From: a virus
Virus record (IMG/VR): IMGVR_UViG_3300045988_075215
Strand: one strand, 5' to 3'
Length of the DNA: 39,214 nucleotides
This document shows positions 3,140-39,214 of the stretch, piece after piece. The position numbers and the translations under genes are program-made. Within the stretch, counting starts at the first letter, position 1. Each line of letters opens with the position of its first letter. The notes under the pieces are model-generated. The model did not search any database. It had not been told where the DNA came from and was given only the letters and a program-made list of their open reading frames with translations.

Positions 3140-3338
3140 TATTCAGATTCTCCAACATTGCCACAAGCTCATTTTTTCTTTCAGCCAGTTTCTCTGATTC
3201 TGCAATTTCCTTTGCATACTCTTCCTTTGTGGCTCTGCCCATGGCAATCTTCGTGCCAATGTAATCATTGGCCTTCATAAGCTGATCAACGGCTCTGATC
3301 TCTGCCTCGATCTGCTCTCTTGTCATATTCTCATTCAT
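3129..3338 (-). CDS. 69-aa helical hypothetical protein translationally coupled to the RT
   Basis: Its ATG overlaps the RT stop (ATGA at 3335-3338), with AAAGGAGGA lying inside the RT 3' end. Confidence 0.55.
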   Translation of the reverse strand: MNENMTREQIEAEIRAVDQLMKANDYIGTKIAMGRATKEEYAKEIAESEKLAERKNELVAMLENLNNEE

Positions 3339-4627
3339 GCTGCTATCCTCCTTTCCTCTGAGTATTCAGGTATTTGTGGTACATATACCCATTCTTTTAT
3401 GAATAGCCGGTTGAAAAGAATATCCATCCGCCGGATGGTTTTATATGCGTCTTTCTGCCCGGCGTATCCTCTCCATGATTGATATGCCTCTCTAACCTGG
3501 GCATAGGTCATTGATCCCTCCTCCGTCAGTTTGGCAAATTTCTTCAGCTTTGCTCTTTCCCTTGTGATGGATTCCCGGCATAGCTTTTTCACTACTTTTC
3601 CGGTATCCGTCAGAATAAATCTGGTTTTCAGGAACGTGAAGCCCCTGCTCAGCTTCACAATTTTGGTTTTCTTCTCATTGAGCTGTATGCCTAATTCTGC
3701 ATATTTCTCTCTGAGTACATCCCACACCATTTTCAGATATTCCTTATCCTGGTGAATGATGAGTGAATCATCCATATATCTCTCATACGGCCTGATCCGC
3801 AGCACTTCCTTCACATAATGATCCACCGGATCCGGATATGCCACGGCACATCCCTGGCAGATTTCACTCCCCAGGCCCAGGCCTCTGGCATACTCATCTC
3901 CATAGAGCATTGCTTCCTCTTTTTGTTTCTGCACCTCCATCATCTTCTCATCAGCAAAGGCATCAATGAAGCTCTCTGTGAGTTTGATGATCTTTTCATC
4001 CGTGAATTTCTTCCGGATCATTTCTTTGAGTGGCTCATGTGGTATGCTTGCAAAATAGTTCTTCAGATCTATTTGCAGCACATAGCCCTCAGTACCGTAT
4101 TTCTCATAGTATTCCTGAAGGAATTGAGATACCCGGTTGATTGCGTGGCTTATGCCCATTCCTTGCCTTGATGCCCCATTGTCATATATGAGGCTGTTGC
4201 TTAGAACTGGCATTAAAGCATTCTTTGAGAGGCTCTTTTGCGGCACCCTTTCTGCAAAATGAACACTCTGGATATGCCGGAGCTTCCCTCTTTCCATAAT
4301 GTCAAAAGGTATGAAGCCCTTCCGCACATCCTCTCCATTGATTAGTGCGTTGTGAGTTCTGCACAGATTTTTCCCAAGCTCAGAACCATATCTCTGCACA
4401 CTGGCCTTCCAGTTTACGCCTTTTCTCGCTTCCCTATAGGCTTGATACAAAGAGTTGTAATCTGCCACCCTGGCAAAATCATCATATTCTGAGAGCTTCT
4501 CTCTTCGGTTTTTCTCCCGCTCAGCTTTCCTCCTGAGTTCTCTCTGTGCGTGTCTTTCTTCGCTTGTCATATTGTAATTGTGCCCAGTTCCCCCTTGTAC
4601 GGTTCTGTGTGCTATCCCTAACCGCAT
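3335..4627 (-). CDS. DGR reverse transcriptase
   Basis: RT motifs seen: RGKLRHI, YDNGASRQGMG, QIDLKNYFASI, LGSEICQ (the DGR-type LGxxxSQ position) and YMDD. It lies directly downstream of the TR. A possible in-frame CTG start at 4660 is preceded by GGGAGGTG. Confidence 0.9.
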   Translation of the reverse strand: MRLGIAHRTVQGGTGHNYNMTSEERHAQRELRRKAEREKNRREKLSEYDDFARVADYNSLYQAYREARKGVNWKASVQRYGSELGKNLCRTHNALINGEDVRKGFIPFDIMERGKLRHIQSVHFAERVPQKSLSKNALMPVLSNSLIYDNGASRQGMGISHAINRVSQFLQEYYEKYGTEGYVLQIDLKNYFASIPHEPLKEMIRKKFTDEKIIKLTESFIDAFADEKMMEVQKQKEEAMLYGDEYARGLGLGSEICQGCAVAYPDPVDHYVKEVLRIRPYERYMDDSLIIHQDKEYLKMVWDVLREKYAELGIQLNEKKTKIVKLSRGFTFLKTRFILTDTGKVVKKLCRESITRERAKLKKFAKLTEEGSMTYAQVREAYQSWRGYAGQKDAYKTIRRMDILFNRLFIKEWVYVPQIPEYSEERRIAA

Positions 4628-4848
4628 AATGGTATGGGTATGAAATGCACCTCTGCACAGCCTTCACCTCCCTTCCGATTTTTGCACCATGCAAGCAGCG
4701 TCCACCCATCCATATCAAGCATGATCCCGCTCATGGCACCAGAGCGGAATGAGATAATTTACATTTGCATGAAGGTCATTCACTCCTTCCTCTGTCTGAT
4801 ATTGATTTCTGCTTTTTACGGCGTACTTTGTCGAATCATTATGACAGT
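4628..4848 (-). ncRNA. Spacer between the TR and the RT start, presumed part of the DGR template RNA
   Basis: Assigned by position only. About 220 nt with no convincing ORF, and it contains the hairpin ccgctc-N9-gagcgg. Confidence 0.35.
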
Positions 4849-4972
4849 GAATCAGAGCGGCACCCGGAAGTCATTGGTGCAGTTGTTGTTGTTGGCATTG
4901 CCGTTGTTGTTGACATTGCAGGCATTGGTAGAATTGCCACCATTCACGGACAGAAGCCACCAGTTGGCCCGG
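4849..4972 (-). repeat. DGR template repeat (TR), 124 bp
   Basis: It aligns without gaps to 5493-5616 and 29326-29449. The minus strand reads RANWWLLSVNGGNSTNACNVNNNGNANNNNCTNDFRVPL*, with 14 AAY codons. Confidence 0.92.
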
Positions 4973-5003: not shown

Positions 5004-5414
5004 TTACTTCTTTCTCTCTATGAGTTTCACTCTGTCCTTCCAGTTCCTCAATTTTTCATCTTCCTTCAGCATCAGGTTTAGCAGAGTATCAAATTTGTTC
5101 CAGTCTACCGGAAGGGTTGTGGCCAGATAATTGATGAGGTTGTATATATCCCGGAGTGTGTCTATTGCTTCCTGGGCTTTTCTCTTCCTCTCCGCAACCT
5201 TTTCCTCCGTGTATGTCCATATTCCATTGGCCATCCTGATCTCGTCATATAATTTCTGGCATAGGGCACACATTGGTTTTGAGAATACATCTCTCCATCC
5301 CTTTGGAACCACATTGGTGTTCCATACAAGCCTTGTGGCCTCTGCTCTTATTTCTTCAGCAAGCTGAAGCACATCTAACTGAGATTTTCCTCTCAGCCTG
5401 GCCAAAACGCTCAT
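5004..5414 (-). CDS. avd: Accessory variability determinant (Avd-like four-helix-bundle protein)
   Basis: 136 aa, basic and all-helical in character. It sits in the canonical position between the target gene and the TR, with a GGGAGGTG RBS. Confidence 0.7.
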   Translation of the reverse strand: MSVLARLRGKSQLDVLQLAEEIRAEATRLVWNTNVVPKGWRDVFSKPMCALCQKLYDEIRMANGIWTYTEEKVAERKRKAQEAIDTLRDIYNLINYLATTLPVDWNKFDTLLNLMLKEDEKLRNWKDRVKLIERKK

Positions 5415-5443: not shown

Positions 5444-5466
5444 CCCGCCACCTGGAAAGTGGCGGG
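5444..5466 (-). promoter_or_regulatory. GC-rich hairpin downstream of VR1 (DGR target-recognition element)
   Basis: Stem cccgccac/gtggcggg (8 bp) with a 7-nt loop, 26 nt beyond the VR1 end. There is no U-tract, so it is not a typical terminator. Confidence 0.7.
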
Positions 5467-5477
5467 ATTGTTCCTGA

Positions 5478-6437
5478 TTATTCCGTGATTCGGAAGCAGA
5501 GCGGCACCCGGAAGTCATAGGTGCAGTTGTTGTAGTCGGCACTGCCGTTGTTGCCGACACGGCAGGCATAGGTAGAAGTGCCACCAGTCACGGACAGAAG
5601 CCCCCAGCTGGCCCGGCTTCCGCCGTCACCGGCCCCTTTGATGCGGCTTCTAAAGCTATTCGCAAATGCCGGATACTGAACCGCCTGGCCTGCACTCCAT
5701 CCCTTTGTGCCCCATACTACAGATCCAAATACTTCATACTCTGAAGGGATCCACAGCTTTCCAAGGTCTGCCCATCCCCATGAGTTTGAATCTGTCAGAG
5801 TTCCGGATCCGGAGTATCTATTTTCCAGAAGGAACCTTTTACTACTAATCACGCTCTGCAATTCTTTAGGCAGCTTTGACACCAAGCCATCCAGAAAGCT
5901 CTTGACTGTTGATTTCAAATAAGGTGCTGCATTTGCAGAGGTTCCGTTGTTATTGTTTTCTGTGAACCATTTCACAGTTTCCGGGTAGCAGTCTTTGGTT
6001 CCCCAGTCAATATGCCATCCAAGCTCCTGATCTGTGGTTCCAGTGTATGTATTGATGCCCAGGATCTCCGGCTTCATAGTGTAGCTTCCCACTGTGATGG
6101 TCATGAAGTCATGCACATGGATTCCATCCAGGTTGTGTGCTGCCAGTCTCGCCTTGATCCATCTCCAAGGGTCAGAGTATTTTGCAATCTCCTCTGCAAA
6201 TCTCACTGTAAGATCTACCCCCTGGTAGTTTTTATCTCCTTCCTCAATGGCAAAATTGCAGTGAGCATTTTCCTCATTGATCTGTTTTGCACCGTACTCA
6301 TCACCCTCCTGGGTGTATGGTGTCTGGTCTGTGTAGCTGAATGTGCCGTCAGAGTTTGTGGCCTGGGAAAATTTGCGATCCGTGGCCAACTCCTCATTGA
6401 TCACATCATCCTTGTAATCTGTTTTTAAGATTGACAT
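5478..6437 (-). CDS. DGR target protein 1: tail fibre/receptor-binding protein with C-terminal variable region
   Basis: 319 aa and the last gene of the tail module. The C-terminus …GGSRASWGLLSVTGGTSTYACRVGNNGSADYNNCTYDFRVPLCFRITE is encoded by VR1. Confidence 0.85.
   Translation of the reverse strand: MSILKTDYKDDVINEELATDRKFSQATNSDGTFSYTDQTPYTQEGDEYGAKQINEENAHCNFAIEEGDKNYQGVDLTVRFAEEIAKYSDPWRWIKARLAAHNLDGIHVHDFMTITVGSYTMKPEILGINTYTGTTDQELGWHIDWGTKDCYPETVKWFTENNNNGTSANAAPYLKSTVKSFLDGLVSKLPKELQSVISSKRFLLENRYSGSGTLTDSNSWGWADLGKLWIPSEYEVFGSVVWGTKGWSAGQAVQYPAFANSFRSRIKGAGDGGSRASWGLLSVTGGTSTYACRVGNNGSADYNNCTYDFRVPLCFRITE
5493..5616 (-). repeat. DGR variable repeat 1 (VR1)
   Basis: 124 bp with 14 mismatches to the TR. 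Thirteen are at TR adenines (plus-strand T) and one is elsewhere (4959). Confidence 0.92.
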
Positions 6438-28608: not shown

Positions 28609-28819
28609 TCAGCTCCTCTCTCAGTTCTTCATACCTGGTTTCCAGGTGCCTGAAGCTCTCCTCCTGCCTCTTTATGCAAAGAAGCATACTCACCATGAAG
28701 CACAGTAGCAAAATGATCAATGATACCGCTGCCCTGTTGAAGTTTCTGGCCTTTTTCAGTTCATCCTCCATGCTCAGCTTCTCATTCAGCATTTCAAAAT
28801 ATTCTTTTTCTCCACTCAC
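28586..28819 (-). CDS. Small single-TM protein
   Basis: 77 aa with the hydrophobic segment AAVSLIILLLCFMVSMLLCI. Confidence 0.45.
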   Translation of the reverse strand: MSGEKEYFEMLNEKLSMEDELKKARNFNRAAVSLIILLLCFMVSMLLCIKRQEESFRHLETRYEELREELIGTDYGE

Positions 28820-29232
28820 TTTTTCGCCTCCTCTCCGGTTTTTACCTTCAGCCCTATTTTTTCAAAATAAAATTTTATTTTCCCCTCATGTTCCTCCACC
28901 ATCCCATACCTCACTGCTATGCTGTATGTGCTCACATCTCTTGCAAGCCGCTTAGGTATTCCTGATAACATTTCTCGGAATGTTTCCAGGTCGAAAGTTG
29001 CTTTGTATTTATTACACGATCTGCATGAAGGGAGCATATTCTCCACAGAATCCACTTTCAGCCCAAGTTCATCATCCATATACTCATAATTTTTCAGGCA
29101 GAGCACATGATCTGCATGAAAACCTTTGAATGGTATTTCACAACCGCAGTACGCACACCTCCCGCCGGTTTTTTCGTATACTTCCCGCCGTTCCTTCTGT
29201 GTGAGCTTTTTCCTCATTCTCTCACCCCGCAA
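28816..29232 (-). CDS. HNH endonuclease
   Basis: Motifs GGRCAYCGCEI…HADHV…PSCRSCNKYK. Confidence 0.8.
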   Translation of the reverse strand: MRGERMRKKLTQKERREVYEKTGGRCAYCGCEIPFKGFHADHVLCLKNYEYMDDELGLKVDSVENMLPSCRSCNKYKATFDLETFREMLSGIPKRLARDVSTYSIAVRYGMVEEHEGKIKFYFEKIGLKVKTGEEAKK

Positions 29233-29275: not shown

Positions 29276-29299
29276 CCTGCCGCCGGTTACAGCGGCAGG
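29276..29299 (-). promoter_or_regulatory. GC-rich hairpin downstream of VR2 (DGR target-recognition element)
   Basis: Stem cctgccgc/gcggcagg (8 bp) with an 8-nt loop, 26 nt beyond the VR2 end. This is the same spacing as at VR1. Confidence 0.7.
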
Positions 29300-29310
29300 A
29301 TTGTTTTTGA

Positions 29311-29937
29311 TTATCTCTTGATTGAGAAGCAGAGCGGCACCCGGAAGTCATTGGTGCAGTTGTAGTCGTTGGCATAGCCGAAGTAGTTGACAAGGGAGGC
29401 ATCGGTAGAATTGCCACCATACACGGACAGAAGCCACCAGGTGGCCCGGCTTCCTCCGTGTCCTCCCATCTTTATTCTGTTTCTCGGATCCTTGAAGATC
29501 TCTAACTGCTCCCCTTCCTTTGCATCAGAGAACCATTCTTCTCCAAACACCTCATATTCTGAAGGGAGCCACAGCTTCAGCATGAATTTCTCCTCTTCGC
29601 CGTCCACAACCTGGATGCACTCTCTTTCACAGATCACAGCTTTCAGTTCTTCCGGAAGCTGCTGCCATACCTTTTCATTCAAAGCCTTGCAGAGGTCACT
29701 CTTCTTGAAGCCTCCGGTGTTTCTTCCGTTCTCATTCCATGTAAATCTCTCCGCCATGGTGTCACGGCTGATGAAGTCCATTCTGTCCTCCGTGATATGA
29801 GCCACCTCATACACCATCTTTTCTCCGGTGAGGAGCTCATCCTCAATCTGATCTCCTACCTTCAGGCTTCCTGCTGCCACCAGGGCTGCAATGTCCTTCC
29901 ATGTGGTTCCTTCTGTTCTTCTGGTTGTCAAATTCAT
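29311..29937 (-). CDS. DGR target protein 2: stand-alone 208-aa paralogue of the target-1 C-terminal domain
   Basis: It shares LWLPSEYEVFG and …GGSRATWWLLSV…DFRVPLCF with target 1. Its 3' end is VR2. Confidence 0.85.
   Translation of the reverse strand: MNLTTRRTEGTTWKDIAALVAAGSLKVGDQIEDELLTGEKMVYEVAHITEDRMDFISRDTMAERFTWNENGRNTGGFKKSDLCKALNEKVWQQLPEELKAVICERECIQVVDGEEEKFMLKLWLPSEYEVFGEEWFSDAKEGEQLEIFKDPRNRIKMGGHGGSRATWWLLSVYGGNSTDASLVNYFGYANDYNCTNDFRVPLCFSIKR
29326..29449 (-). repeat. DGR variable repeat 2 (VR2)
   Basis: 124 bp with 13 mismatches to the TR. Twelve are at TR adenines and one is elsewhere (4919). Confidence 0.9.
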
Positions 29938-30241: not shown

Positions 30242-31243
30242 TTATCTCTTTTTGCGATCATAATCTTCAAAGTTTCTGATTGTTCGGAATACTCTTTTTG
30301 AGTTCACCCATCTCTGCAAATCAATGCAGATTTGCGGTGCGTTCCATTTTTCATACACCATCACATATGGATCAAACCCCAAATCTCTGAGTGTGTATAT
30401 TCTGTGAAGATCCTGCTCTATTGTGCTGTTGAAATTGATCAGGGTGTATACTGTCAGCCTTCTTCTATCCAAGCCGGTGATCTCCTTGAACATTTTCAAT
30501 TTCGGCACAATCAGATCCTCATCCTCCGGGTTATCCCACGCAAAATGCAGCATCTTCACCTTTAGCTTCTTTATGAGCTCAGTGTTTTTCTCTGTGAGCA
30601 GCCTTGCATCAAGCCCTTGGTTTATATCCACCCACGCCTTAGAATCCACAAGCTGCTGCAATATTTCCAGGTGCTCCGGGCAGGCCAGGAGGTTTGGATC
30701 CATGAGTTTAATCTCTTTTTGTCCTCTCCAAAACTCATCCAAATCTGCCACCTTCCTGCTTTTCTTTCCCTCTTTGCATCCCACTATGCAGAAATGGCAT
30801 CCTCTTGGGCGCCCTCTGCTTGTGAATCCGTATGCAGTATCAGTTATTCCATACAGCGAATAATCAGGGTATATATGCTCTGCTTCATATGGCAAAATGT
30901 CCTGGTAGGTTTTTCCTGCCTCTGTAATCGTCAAAGGTATTCGATCACTTTCTTCCAGTCCAACCTTCTTTATAAGCTCATCCCTCATGCTTCTGAATCG
31001 TTCTTGCAGCTCACCATGAATGAATCCGCTTCCACCATATTGCACTGCATCTGCATTCATTGGATAATCAAAAAACTCCGAAAAAGAGAAAACCCTGCTC
31101 ACATATATCTTTTCCATGTGGCCTGATAAAAGCGGGTAGTACCACTCCACTTCATCTCCTGCTGCCTTGTGATATGCAGAGAGCTTCATCATTGGCAAAT
31201 TGGGGTAGTTGTGGCCATCCACATCAATCAAGCCTACTCTCAT
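30242..31243 (-). CDS. Radical-SAM-superfamily-like protein with an atypical Cys motif
   Basis: It reads TSRGRPRGCHFCIVGC where a canonical enzyme has RGCxxxCxFC. The N-terminal LIDVD…PNLPMMKLSAYHK is reminiscent of phage B12-like/radical-SAM proteins. Confidence 0.45.
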   Translation of the reverse strand: MRVGLIDVDGHNYPNLPMMKLSAYHKAAGDEVEWYYPLLSGHMEKIYVSRVFSFSEFFDYPMNADAVQYGGSGFIHGELQERFRSMRDELIKKVGLEESDRIPLTITEAGKTYQDILPYEAEHIYPDYSLYGITDTAYGFTSRGRPRGCHFCIVGCKEGKKSRKVADLDEFWRGQKEIKLMDPNLLACPEHLEILQQLVDSKAWVDINQGLDARLLTEKNTELIKKLKVKMLHFAWDNPEDEDLIVPKLKMFKEITGLDRRRLTVYTLINFNSTIEQDLHRIYTLRDLGFDPYVMVYEKWNAPQICIDLQRWVNSKRVFRTIRNFEDYDRKKR

Positions 31244-34556: not shown

Positions 34557-34668
34557 GCGGTTAAAAAGGGCTTAAAACCCTTGTTTTTCGCCGTTTTCGG
34601 TTGACTTTAAGCCCTCAAAGTGATATACTATTTATACGGTTTAGTATGTCCTTGTTTTTGAGGACTTT

Positions 34669-34703
34669 GGAGGCAGATTGCTCAGATCTGCCTCCATTTT
34701 TTT
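34669..34703 (+). other. 10-bp perfect hairpin plus T7 tract upstream of rep (terminator-like or candidate origin hairpin)
   Basis: Sequence ggaggcagat-tgctcag-atctgcctcc followed by attttttt. It sits between the small ORF stop at 34723 and the rep start. Confidence 0.5.
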
Positions 34704-37566: not shown

Positions 37567-37587
37567 GGGCATTTTTATGCCCTTTTT
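37567..37587 (+). promoter_or_regulatory. Small hairpin plus T5 immediately upstream of the integrase RBS
   Basis: Sequence gggcat-tttt-atgccc followed by ttttt, then AGGAGG (37588-93). Confidence 0.4.
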
Positions 37588-37600
37588 AGGAGGTTTTGCT

Positions 37601-39187
37601 GTGCATTTTGGAATTTATGGAAGAAAATCATATTTTAAGGACACCTCAGACAGTACACAGATGCAGTTTTCTGAAGGTGATAAATATATAGCTGAACACT
37701 TTTCCCCGGATGAGATTGAATCCGTCACATACTATGAGGATGATGGTTGGATCCGTTCTGATATGGATAGGCCGGATCTGAACCGCCTGAAGGATGATAT
37801 ACTTGCAGGACTCATCAATGTGGTGGTTATTTATAAAATAGACCGTCTGTGCTGTGATATGGCCGACTTTGTACCGTTCTATGCCTTCCTGAAGGATCAT
37901 GGTGTTAAATTCATCACCATCAAAGATGGCATTGATACCACCACGCCTATTGGAGAGGCCATGATGTACCTGGCTGTTATCTTCTCCGGCCTGGAAGTGC
38001 AAACCGACTCCCTCCGGATCACCGATAACATGAACCACCTGGCAGCGGAGGGCTTCTGGTGTGGAGGCAAGCCGCCCATTGGTTATGATATTCAGGAGAT
38101 CTCCCTGGGTGCAAAATCTCATAAAACCCTTGTTTTCAATGAGGATGAAATCCGATATAAAAACACTCTCATTGATATTTTCCTGGAAAACCATTTCTCC
38201 CTTCAGGGTATGGAGACCTACTGCAAAAACCATGGGATCACCTCCCTCAAAGGAAGTTTCCTCTCCACCACTCAGCTCTATAGTATGTTTGGCTCTCCCA
38301 TGTGCGTGGCCAACACTCCTGCTATGTATGATTATTTTGCGGATAAAGGATGCCAGATGAGTGAGGGAAGCCCAAGGGATGCCTGGGATGGAAAGCATGG
38401 GATCATTGTGTATGGCCGCACTATGGAGAAGAAAGTGAGCGGCAAAAAGAAACACATCCAGGCTCCTCCTGAGAACTGGCGTGTGAGTATCGGATACCAT
38501 GAGCCCTATATGACTGATGAGCGTTTCTTTGCCATTCAGGCTCAGTTTGGGCACAACGTATTCAGCAAGCAGGCCAAGTATGATCTCCCGCTGCTCAAAG
38601 GTTCCCTCCGGTGCAAATGTGGCCGCCTTATGTCCATGAGCCGGAAAAAGAAAGCTGATGGCTCTATTTCCACCTGGTACTATTGTCCCCGCCGGATGCG
38701 GAGCGGCGTTGAGGCTTGTGATATGAGCCAAGTCAAATCAGATCTCCTGGATAATAGGGTGATCAGTATCTTCCAGGAGATTGAACATGATCCTGCTGCC
38801 CTGAAAAAGTATCTGAAAGAAGAAAAGAAACAGCCGCAGGATAACGCCGCCGCTCTCCGGGCCGCCATGGAGAAATGCCAGGCCAAAATAGGCAAGCTCA
38901 CCGCCACCCTGAGCCTCAACTCTGAATCTGCTGCTGCAAAGTATATTGTGAATGAAATTGAGAAATTGGATATTGAGTATAATTCACTCAGGAAAAGAAT
39001 GCTGAGTGCAAATGCCGTTGATCGGAAGAATGCTCTCAACATGAAGAATGCTATGGAAAAAAGAGAGGAGATCATCCGCCTCCTCAATGATTTTGACAAC
39101 TTCACACCTAATGAGCGGAATGAGATTGCCAAGGATGTGCTGAAGGAATGTGTGTGGGATGGGAATACGCTTTTTCTTACGCTTTAA
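37601..39187 (+). CDS. Large serine recombinase (integrase)
   Basis: GTG start 7 nt after AGGAGG. The resolvase-type N-terminus reads HFGIYGRKS…VVIYKIDRL…ITIKDGIDTTTPIGEAM. A recombinase domain, a Cys-rich zinc ribbon (CKCG…CPRR) and a coiled coil follow. The track start at 37577 lacks an RBS. Confidence 0.85.
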   Translation: MHFGIYGRKSYFKDTSDSTQMQFSEGDKYIAEHFSPDEIESVTYYEDDGWIRSDMDRPDLNRLKDDILAGLINVVVIYKIDRLCCDMADFVPFYAFLKDHGVKFITIKDGIDTTTPIGEAMMYLAVIFSGLEVQTDSLRITDNMNHLAAEGFWCGGKPPIGYDIQEISLGAKSHKTLVFNEDEIRYKNTLIDIFLENHFSLQGMETYCKNHGITSLKGSFLSTTQLYSMFGSPMCVANTPAMYDYFADKGCQMSEGSPRDAWDGKHGIIVYGRTMEKKVSGKKKHIQAPPENWRVSIGYHEPYMTDERFFAIQAQFGHNVFSKQAKYDLPLLKGSLRCKCGRLMSMSRKKKADGSISTWYYCPRRMRSGVEACDMSQVKSDLLDNRVISIFQEIEHDPAALKKYLKEEKKQPQDNAAALRAAMEKCQAKIGKLTATLSLNSESAAAKYIVNEIEKLDIEYNSLRKRMLSANAVDRKNALNMKNAMEKREEIIRLLNDFDNFTPNERNEIAKDVLKECVWDGNTLFLTL

Positions 39188-39214
39188 TTTTCCCTTTTTT
39201 ATTTTGATACCCTC
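39116..39214 (+). repeat. Terminal overlap, copy 2 (identical to 1-99)
   Basis: Read directly. Confidence 0.95.

Follow-up and report, generated by a model that had tools for sequence, protein, structure and literature searches.

Matching GC-rich hairpins behind two distant variable regions of a phage diversity-generating retroelement as probable marks of the recipient site

How can a single retroelement rewrite two genes that lie 24 kb apart and spare the template from which both are copied? The question is raised by a gut-phage sequence of 39,214 nt, IMG/VR virus record IMGVR_UViG_3300045988_075215, the whole of which is referred to here as the window. It carries a diversity-generating retroelement (DGR) on the minus strand, with one template repeat (TR), one reverse transcriptase (RT) and two target genes, each with a variable region (VR) at its 3′ end. 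A short GC-rich inverted repeat follows each VR just past the stop codon of the target gene. We consider it probable, at roughly 80%, that these repeats fold as hairpins and act in cis as marks by which the one DGR tells its recipients from its template, in an arrangement of the type known from phage BPP-1, where an initiation of mutagenic homing (IMH) element is combined with a hairpin. This judgement is drawn from sequence comparison and from analogy with BPP-1.

The first-pass annotation of the window had placed an 8-bp GC hairpin exactly 26 nt beyond the end of each VR, and both the coordinates and the stems were borne out when read again from the sequence. The end of VR1 homology at 5493 is given by self-BLAST, and the end of VR2 at 29326 was set by the same register. 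Both stems are perfect over 8 bp, seven of which are G:C pairs. Read on the sense strand, the VR1 repeat is CCCGCCAC-TTTCCAG-GTGGCGGG and the VR2 repeat is CCTGCCGC-TGTAACCG-GCGGCAGG. The two stems do differ in sequence, as had been noted, at two pairs, and both differences are compensatory (C-G to T-A and A-T to G-C). On the sense strand a T.G pair can lengthen both stems, which leaves loops of TTCCA at VR1 and TAAC at VR2. The linkers between VR and hairpin had been described as similar although they cross the stop codons; they are identical at 19 of 26 positions, with TAA in each, and so have seven unpaired changes per 26 nt. The linker motif ATAATCARRAACAATCC occurs twice in the window, only at VR1 and VR2. 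The paralogy of the two targets reaches through linker and hairpin and stops within ~10 nt past the hairpin.

Folding with DNA parameters gave −15.0 kcal/mol for the VR1 flank (z = −4.3) and −12.9 kcal/mol for the VR2 flank (z = −3.7). The hairpins dominate the predicted folds and none of 200 shuffles folded as well as either flank; RNA parameters gave the same outcome. The folding check that had been proposed thus found both stems favoured. Perfect stems of 8 bp or longer with six or more GC pairs occur at only four sites in the 39-kb window, the VR1 and VR2 hairpins included, against 0.48 ± 0.83 expected in Markov-simulated sequence. The only other two strong GC hairpins, at 129-154 and 34668-34696, have 11-bp stems; the second is followed by TTTTTTT on the + strand and the first, on the minus strand, by a T-rich stretch, and both look like ordinary terminators.

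The donor and the recipients part company at a single base. The GC-rich core CCGGGTGCCGCTCTG is identical in TR, VR1 and VR2, and the three have ATGACTTCCGGGTGCCGCTCTG in common before diverging after the next base. The first difference is an A at 4852 in the TR (TGA) against a C at 5496 and 29329 in the VRs (TGC, Cys). The same contrast, CTG-A-TTC in the TR and CTG-C-TTC in the VR, is found in nearly all family members. The sequence 3′ of the TR had been said to hold no comparable structure. As regards a GC hairpin this is correct (z = −0.8 in the DNA fold), and as regards structure in general it is not: an RT-2 RNA (Rfam RF03077), the structured spacer between TR and RT, matches there with 99.4 bits against a gathering score of 40 and over the full length of the model. 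All 12 relatives tested have an RT-2 RNA directly behind the TR; it is the TR-side counterpart to the VR-side hairpin.

A survey of related elements ties the hairpin to the VR. We aligned 34 RT homologues and used the alignment to fetch 160 loci from viral and genome collections; the RT relatives surveyed are 43-98% identical, and the nearest hosts among them are Lachnospiraceae. Repeat pairs with adenine-biased TR/VR differences were present in 125 of 169 loci and provided 93 distinct VR 3′ flanks. A hairpin was counted when a perfect stem of at least 7 bp with at least 5 GC pairs lay no more than 90 nt downstream. By this measure 90 of the 93 VR flanks (97%) have a hairpin and none of the 93 TR flanks does. 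Hairpins of this kind were found in 2.2% of random windows from the same loci and downstream of 8.8% of the stops of other long open reading frames (ORFs). The mean DNA folding energy is −15.5 kcal/mol for VR flanks and −7.6 kcal/mol for TR flanks (Wilcoxon p = 7e-17). Judged from these sequences, the hairpin goes with VRs and not with gene ends in general.

The spacing between VR and hairpin is less rigid than the window alone would suggest. The first-pass annotation expected a structure at a fixed distance from the VR in homologous targets; the structure is there, in 90 of 93 flanks, and the distance is not fixed. The hairpin begins 14-69 nt after the BLAST homology end across the family, and 3-55 nt (median 15) after the stop codon, the latter range leaving out a few truncated loci in which the frame could not be set. 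In the close subclade the linker length is 24-28 nt. Because the spacing varies in this way among relatives, the identical 26-nt spacing in the phage reflects common descent of both gene ends, with the distance itself only loosely constrained. Flexibility in the distance to the hairpin was also found for BPP-1 (PMC3240598).

The stem varies freely in sequence. The family hairpins comprise 57 distinct stem sequences of 7-13 bp, with a mean GC content of 82% against 39% in the linkers; the arms are separated by 3-8 nt, and C-G is the closing pair in 57 of 61. The check for covariation in relatives that had been proposed was run on the close subclade, which has nine distinct hairpins. Their stem is recovered by RNAalifold, and five of its ten pairs have undergone double changes. 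Shuffled alignments gave 1.7 ± 0.9 such pairs, reaching the observed value once in 500, and slid controls gave 0. By these data it is the pairing of the stem that is conserved, and not its sequence.

Natural variation indicates that both recipients are in use. Self-BLAST places 13 of the 14 mismatches between VR1 and TR, and 13 of the 16 between VR2 and TR, at TR adenines. Extra copies were collected from viral and metagenome contigs by means of the linker DNA pattern; searches for the locus with single proteins gave few relatives. Six distinct metagenomic variants of VR1 and ten of VR2 were obtained. In VR1, 29 of 34 variable columns fall at TR adenines. The corresponding figure for VR2 is 31 of 74, a raw tally inflated by one misaligned indel copy (L200, ADJT01008751.1); the other VR2 copies have their changes at TR adenines. 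Along the 5′ two-thirds of the L200 copy the register with the TR is lost, implying that the VR contains an indel; non-canonical outcomes of this kind have been noted previously (PMC5758913). The 70 nt downstream of VR2, linker and hairpin included, are invariant across the ten variants. Over the same length downstream of VR1 one base differs, outside the hairpin, and the hairpin is the same in all metagenomic copies. Both target types are present on three long contigs. Compared with a 95%-identical phage there are 18 differences in each VR and scattered ones over the rest of the genes, and zero from the IMH through the hairpin. Since both VRs vary at TR adenines and their flanks are near-invariant, one TR and RT serve both sites, as the first-pass annotation had proposed.

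The architecture resembles that of BPP-1 (PMC3240598) in several respects. Both systems have a GC-rich core in TR and VR that is followed by VR-specific sequence, in both the stop codon is closely followed by an 8-bp GC-rich inverted repeat that the TR lacks, and in both the stem is conserved as structure, not sequence. The geometry is comparable, the stem lying ~24 nt past the GC core in BPP-1 and 30 nt past it here. By analogy, linker 1 would occupy the place that in BPP-1 belongs to the non-GC part of the IMH and the spacer. The BPP-1 hairpin is required for efficient homing, and its stem acts by structure and not by sequence (PMC3240598); work with a reconstituted system in E. coli confirmed its role and gave rise to a model of lagging-strand access (PMC12875486). 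There are differences. The sequence from the GC core to the hairpin is nearly unrelated to the TR flank here, whereas the BPP-1 IMH and IMH* differ at just five positions. BPP-1 has a single target and this element has two. The spacer RNA of BPP-1 is Phage_DGR (RF03022) and that of the window is RT-2 (RF03077).

With BPP-1 as the guide, homing could proceed as follows. The RT and the protein encoded at the avd position would bind the RT-2 spacer RNA that follows the TR. A cDNA mutagenised at adenines would be begun within the GC-rich IMH* core and would replace the homologous VR. A sequence would be accepted as recipient where the GC core is followed by the VR-type C, not the A of the TR, and by the conserved linker of ~26 nt. 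After the linker, close behind the stop codon, the GC-rich inverted repeat of 7-13 bp could form an extruded hairpin or cruciform. The hairpin would probably raise the efficiency of homing through its structure, and the point of integration would not be set by it; it may keep the sense strand open or single-stranded for annealing of the cDNA during replication. The TR, which has A for C and is followed by the RT-2 RNA where the VRs have linker and hairpin, would be the donor, and would be protected from self-mutagenesis by the lack of these two parts. As VR1 and VR2 carry the same module, a single TR and RT could thus diversify both in trans across 24 kb.

Several points weigh against assigning this role to the hairpins. 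Every functional step above is carried over from BPP-1, and the two systems differ in the family of RT and spacer RNA. High-confidence inverted repeats were found in only 34% of the DGRs in one survey (PMC5758913), and a hairpin is therefore not universally required. The protein at the avd position has no match, to Avd or otherwise, among Pfam, PHROGs, NCBIfam or PDB sequences. A single-sequence AlphaFold model of it is all-helical, with about four long helices of the six called, and is of low confidence (predicted local distance difference test score, pLDDT, of 61); Foldseek returned nothing significant for this weak model. A further difficulty lies in the loops. The two in the window differ from each other, with 7 nt at VR1 and 8 nt at VR2, or 5 and 4 nt with the T.G pair, and neither fits the 4-nt GRNA form of the BPP-1 hairpin, GCGGGGCC-GAAA-GGCCCCGC. 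Both strands of the 93 family flanks were searched for a hairpin with a GRNA tetraloop, and no flank has one.

The loop of BPP-1 has a sequence-dependent role (PMC3240598), and a loop of 4 nt with the sequence GRNA is the published rule and a search criterion of myDGR (PMC6602519). Measured against the criteria for a recipient mark (a repeat of 7-10 bp absent from the TR, lying 4-34 bp from the VR end), the repeats of the window are 8 bp long, are absent from the TR and lie at 26 nt; the loops depart from the rule. The match to BPP-1 architecture claimed in the first-pass annotation accordingly stands for the core and, in the window and in the family, for the hairpin and its absence from the TR, and fails for the loop. 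Across the wider family the loops are pyrimidine-rich and 5-6 nt long, mostly CTTGT, CTTGC, CTTTGT, TTTAT or CTCGT. In the subclade of the window the loop is xTCCCA(G), from which the VR2 loop TGTAACCG is an outlier. Tentatively, and with the odds against it, RT-2-type DGRs (gut Firmicutes, Actinobacteria and others, this phage among them), with their pyrimidine-rich loops of 5-8 nt, could form a recipient-hairpin class of their own, in which the class of loop tracks the lineage of RT and spacer RNA. If so, the presence of one RT with two loops in this phage would mean that recognition of the loop does not depend on its sequence in this clade, or else that the two targets are diversified at different rates.

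Two ways in which the loop or the strand might be read were considered and rejected. The family loop C-CTTG(T/C)-G resembles a near-invariant motif of the RT-2 RNA, GGACGCUGCUUGCAUGG (~4675-4691 of the window, minus strand), and the spacer RNA contains the loop sequence of its own locus in 27 of 81 cases, against 17.6 ± 2.7 in permutations. Pairing or mimicry between loop and RNA was discarded: the RNA motif is nearly invariant whatever the DNA loop, so that there is no covariation, and the loops of the window match nothing in the RNA. A strand asymmetry through G.T wobbles was likewise dropped, sense-type (TG/GT) and antisense-type (CA/AC) flanking mismatches being about equally frequent in the family.

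The hairpins might instead belong to the expression of the targets, as sense-strand terminators or as stem-loops that stabilise the mRNA 3′ end, unrelated to retrohoming. Like Rho-independent terminators they are GC-rich stem-loops soon after a stop codon, 11 nt past it in both cases, with a strong GC stem in the RNA fold, and GC-rich hairpins do follow 8.8% of the other ORFs in the surveyed loci. Unlike such terminators they have no T-tract on the transcribed strand, where the tails read GTATAACTTGCG and GTAACTGGTAGG, and they are specifically linked to VRs. Only 21 of the 90 family hairpins have five or more T in the next 10 nt, whereas the terminator-like hairpins elsewhere in the window (34668-34696; 129-154 on the minus strand) do have T-runs. 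A terminator after VR1 would also cut off the avd-position ORF, the TR and the RT, as this ORF starts 30 nt downstream. Termination leaves unexplained a tenfold enrichment, from 8.8% of other gene ends to 97% of VR ends, and the common geometry in two unrelated genomic contexts; in the survey of Wu et al. most DGR targets had no terminator behind them (PMC5758913). We regard this explanation as unlikely on its own, and a dual role as terminator or stabiliser plus recipient mark is possible. Another possibility is termination on the other strand, against antisense transcription entering the targets. The first-pass statement that neither hairpin has a U-tract is right for the transcribed minus strand; on the + strand the 8-bp stems are followed by ATTGTTCCTG and ATTGTTTTTG, and a simple terminator scan weakly flags both sites as terminator-like. 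The minus strand holds every credible gene between 1 and ~36 kb, and no + strand transcript needs stopping there. The T-richness at VR1 is marginal (5/8), an A-rich stretch precedes the hairpin on the sense strand in only 24 of 90 family members, and the two + strand sites found compare with 1.2-1.5 expected from shuffles. Intrinsic antisense terminators are thus very improbable.

The likeness of the hairpins could also be a passive relic of a duplicated target 3′ end, the inverted repeat itself being functionless. The targets are indeed paralogous over ~300 nt through linker and hairpin, and this would account for the identical 26-nt spacing. A relic would not be expected to differ between its copies by two compensatory pairs only while the linker gathers seven unpaired changes in 26 nt, nor to keep a perfect stem with 57 sequences and significant covariation among relatives. 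The homology stops ~10 nt beyond the hairpin, so that the hairpin closes the conserved unit. We give the relic as little credit as the antisense terminators. Least probable of all is a palindrome bound by a repressor, a recombinase or another sequence-specific protein, in favour of which the perfect palindromic stem and the intergenic position might be cited; stems free to vary in sequence while pairing is kept are the signature of a nucleic-acid structure and not of an operator, and the spacing of the half-sites is variable, from 3 to 8 nt. A recipient mark of the BPP-1 type is the reading that we retain.

Other systems offer partial parallels. DGRs with several targets are known from Treponema denticola, Stenotrophomonas and the gut-phage elements nd4 and nd12 (PMC5758913, PMC6602519, PMC10743442). 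As here, one RT and TR serve several VRs, some of them remote, and the targets have C-type-lectin/DUF6273 folds; hairpins have been reported after some of the remote targets. In nd4 and nd12 the layout is that of an N-terminal C-lec ‘tentaclin’, whereas the window has a C-terminal VR in small DUF6273 proteins. The window also differs from these multi-target DGRs in that both its hairpins are perfect and differ by compensatory changes only. A more distant parallel, drawn by Guo et al. (PMC3240598), is with the group IIC introns that recognise terminator stem-loops, in which a retroelement likewise reads a GC-rich DNA stem-loop by its shape. Here there is no intron, ribozyme, insertion or U-tract, and the information is copied into a repeat upstream of the hairpin.

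The element is thus a new example of a known form of discrimination between target and template; it leaves the accepted mechanism unchanged, and the clade-specific loop is its sole unusual point. Its value lies in being a clean natural case, in which one retroelement has two targets 24 kb apart with the same cis module and both in use, and the compensatory changes between them amount to a stem-swap experiment performed by evolution. The hairpin is near-universal in this RT clade (97%), and search rules that demand GRNA would miss every case; such a rule may partly explain why hairpins have been reported in only about one third of DGRs. For directed evolution based on DGRs, a minimal recipient tag of GC core, ~26-nt linker and 8-bp GC hairpin is suggested, as a candidate orthogonal module.

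Table 1. Parts of the diversity-generating retroelement and its two recipient sites, with positions in the window
Feature	Position	Strand	Details
VR1	5493-5616	minus	self-BLAST match to TR of 124 nt; IMH core 5497-5511; VR-specific C at 5496 (g on +)
VR2	29326-29449	minus	self-BLAST match to TR of 131 nt (29319-29449); IMH core 29330-29344; VR-specific C at 29329
TR	4849-4972	minus	IMH* core 4853-4867; adenine at 4852 (t on +)
Linker 1	5467-5492	minus	26 nt: final 4 codons of target 1 (R I T E), TAA 5478-5480, 11 non-coding nt
Linker 2	29300-29325	minus	26 nt: codons S I K R, TAA 29311-29313, 11 non-coding nt
VR1 hairpin/cruciform-forming inverted repeat	5444-5466	minus	+ strand cccgccac-ctggaaa-gtggcggg
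VR2 hairpin/cruciform-forming inverted repeat	29276-29299	minus	+ strand cctgccgc-cggttaca-gcggcagg
RT-2 RNA (RF03077)	4570-4840	minus	structured TR-RT spacer
DGR reverse transcriptase ORF	3335-4627	minus	RVT_1 7.7e-15; ATG at 4627
avd-position accessory ORF	5004-5414	minus	136 aa, between target 1 and TR
Target gene 1	5478-6437	minus	319 aa, C-terminal DUF6273, last gene of the tail module
Target gene 2	29311-29937	minus	208 aa, DUF6273, ~24 kb from RT, outside the tail module

The order of the parts on the minus strand is target 1 with VR1, hairpin, avd-position ORF, TR, RT-2 RNA and RT, with target 2 and VR2 24 kb off (Table 1). The DUF6273 matches span the VR-bearing C-terminal region of both targets (1.1e-19 for target 1 and 1.3e-05 for target 2), and this domain has been described as C-lec-like (PMC10743442). 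The avd-position ORF is preceded by a GGAGG site. The TR sits ~280 nt upstream of the RT, which has 2594 homologues at E ≤ 1e-40. The end of the RT-2 RNA falls precisely on an in-frame ATG (4570), the point at which the homologues begin (consensus MTSEER), and the true start of the RT is therefore probably this ATG and not that at 4627. Target 2 lies between the genes of a radical-SAM protein and an HNH/endonuclease VII protein (28816-29232 and 30242-31243, minus strand), near the endolysin.

The linkers hold some further structure. That of VR1 can form a weak small hairpin, TTCCG-AATCA-CGGAA, of which VR2 has only a shifted 4-bp version. We rejected it as a conserved feature of the subclade, as the pairing is broken in two of the surveyed loci (L007 and L010) and the stretch is coding. 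In many relatives (for example loci L034, L064, L078, L115, L123 and L168) a smaller hairpin stands between the IMH and the main hairpin, and holds the stop codon in its loop, as in CTGC-GTAA-GCAG and GAGTGGGCGT-GTAA-ACGCCCACTC. In 14 of 78 linkers the stem reaches 6 bp or more; the rate in shuffles is 2.3%.

The window has a 99-nt exact direct repeat at its ends (1-99 and 39116-39214), which makes the contig a phage genome of ~39.1 kb that is either closed into a circle or terminally redundant. Its genes include those of a tape-measure protein and other tail proteins, an endolysin and, on the opposite strand, a large serine integrase at 37577-39187 (+). The integrase marks a lysogeny module, and the phage is therefore temperate; it is siphovirus-like. 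The GC skew is uniform from 1 to ~36 kb and flips sign past ~36 kb. The common orientation of the two targets is compatible with a preference for replication direction reported in 2026, and is not diagnostic in a phage. A search of a phage collection with the DGR region gave only a 189-nt match to the RT of Roseburia phage Shimadzu and no close annotated relative. Both VR types occur together on contigs of 61-80 kb, which suggest integrated copies. In one of the surveyed loci (L054, 11770-11834), ~5 kb downstream of the related DGR, there is a borderline match to a type II hammerhead ribozyme, with 37.6 bits against a gathering score of 37.

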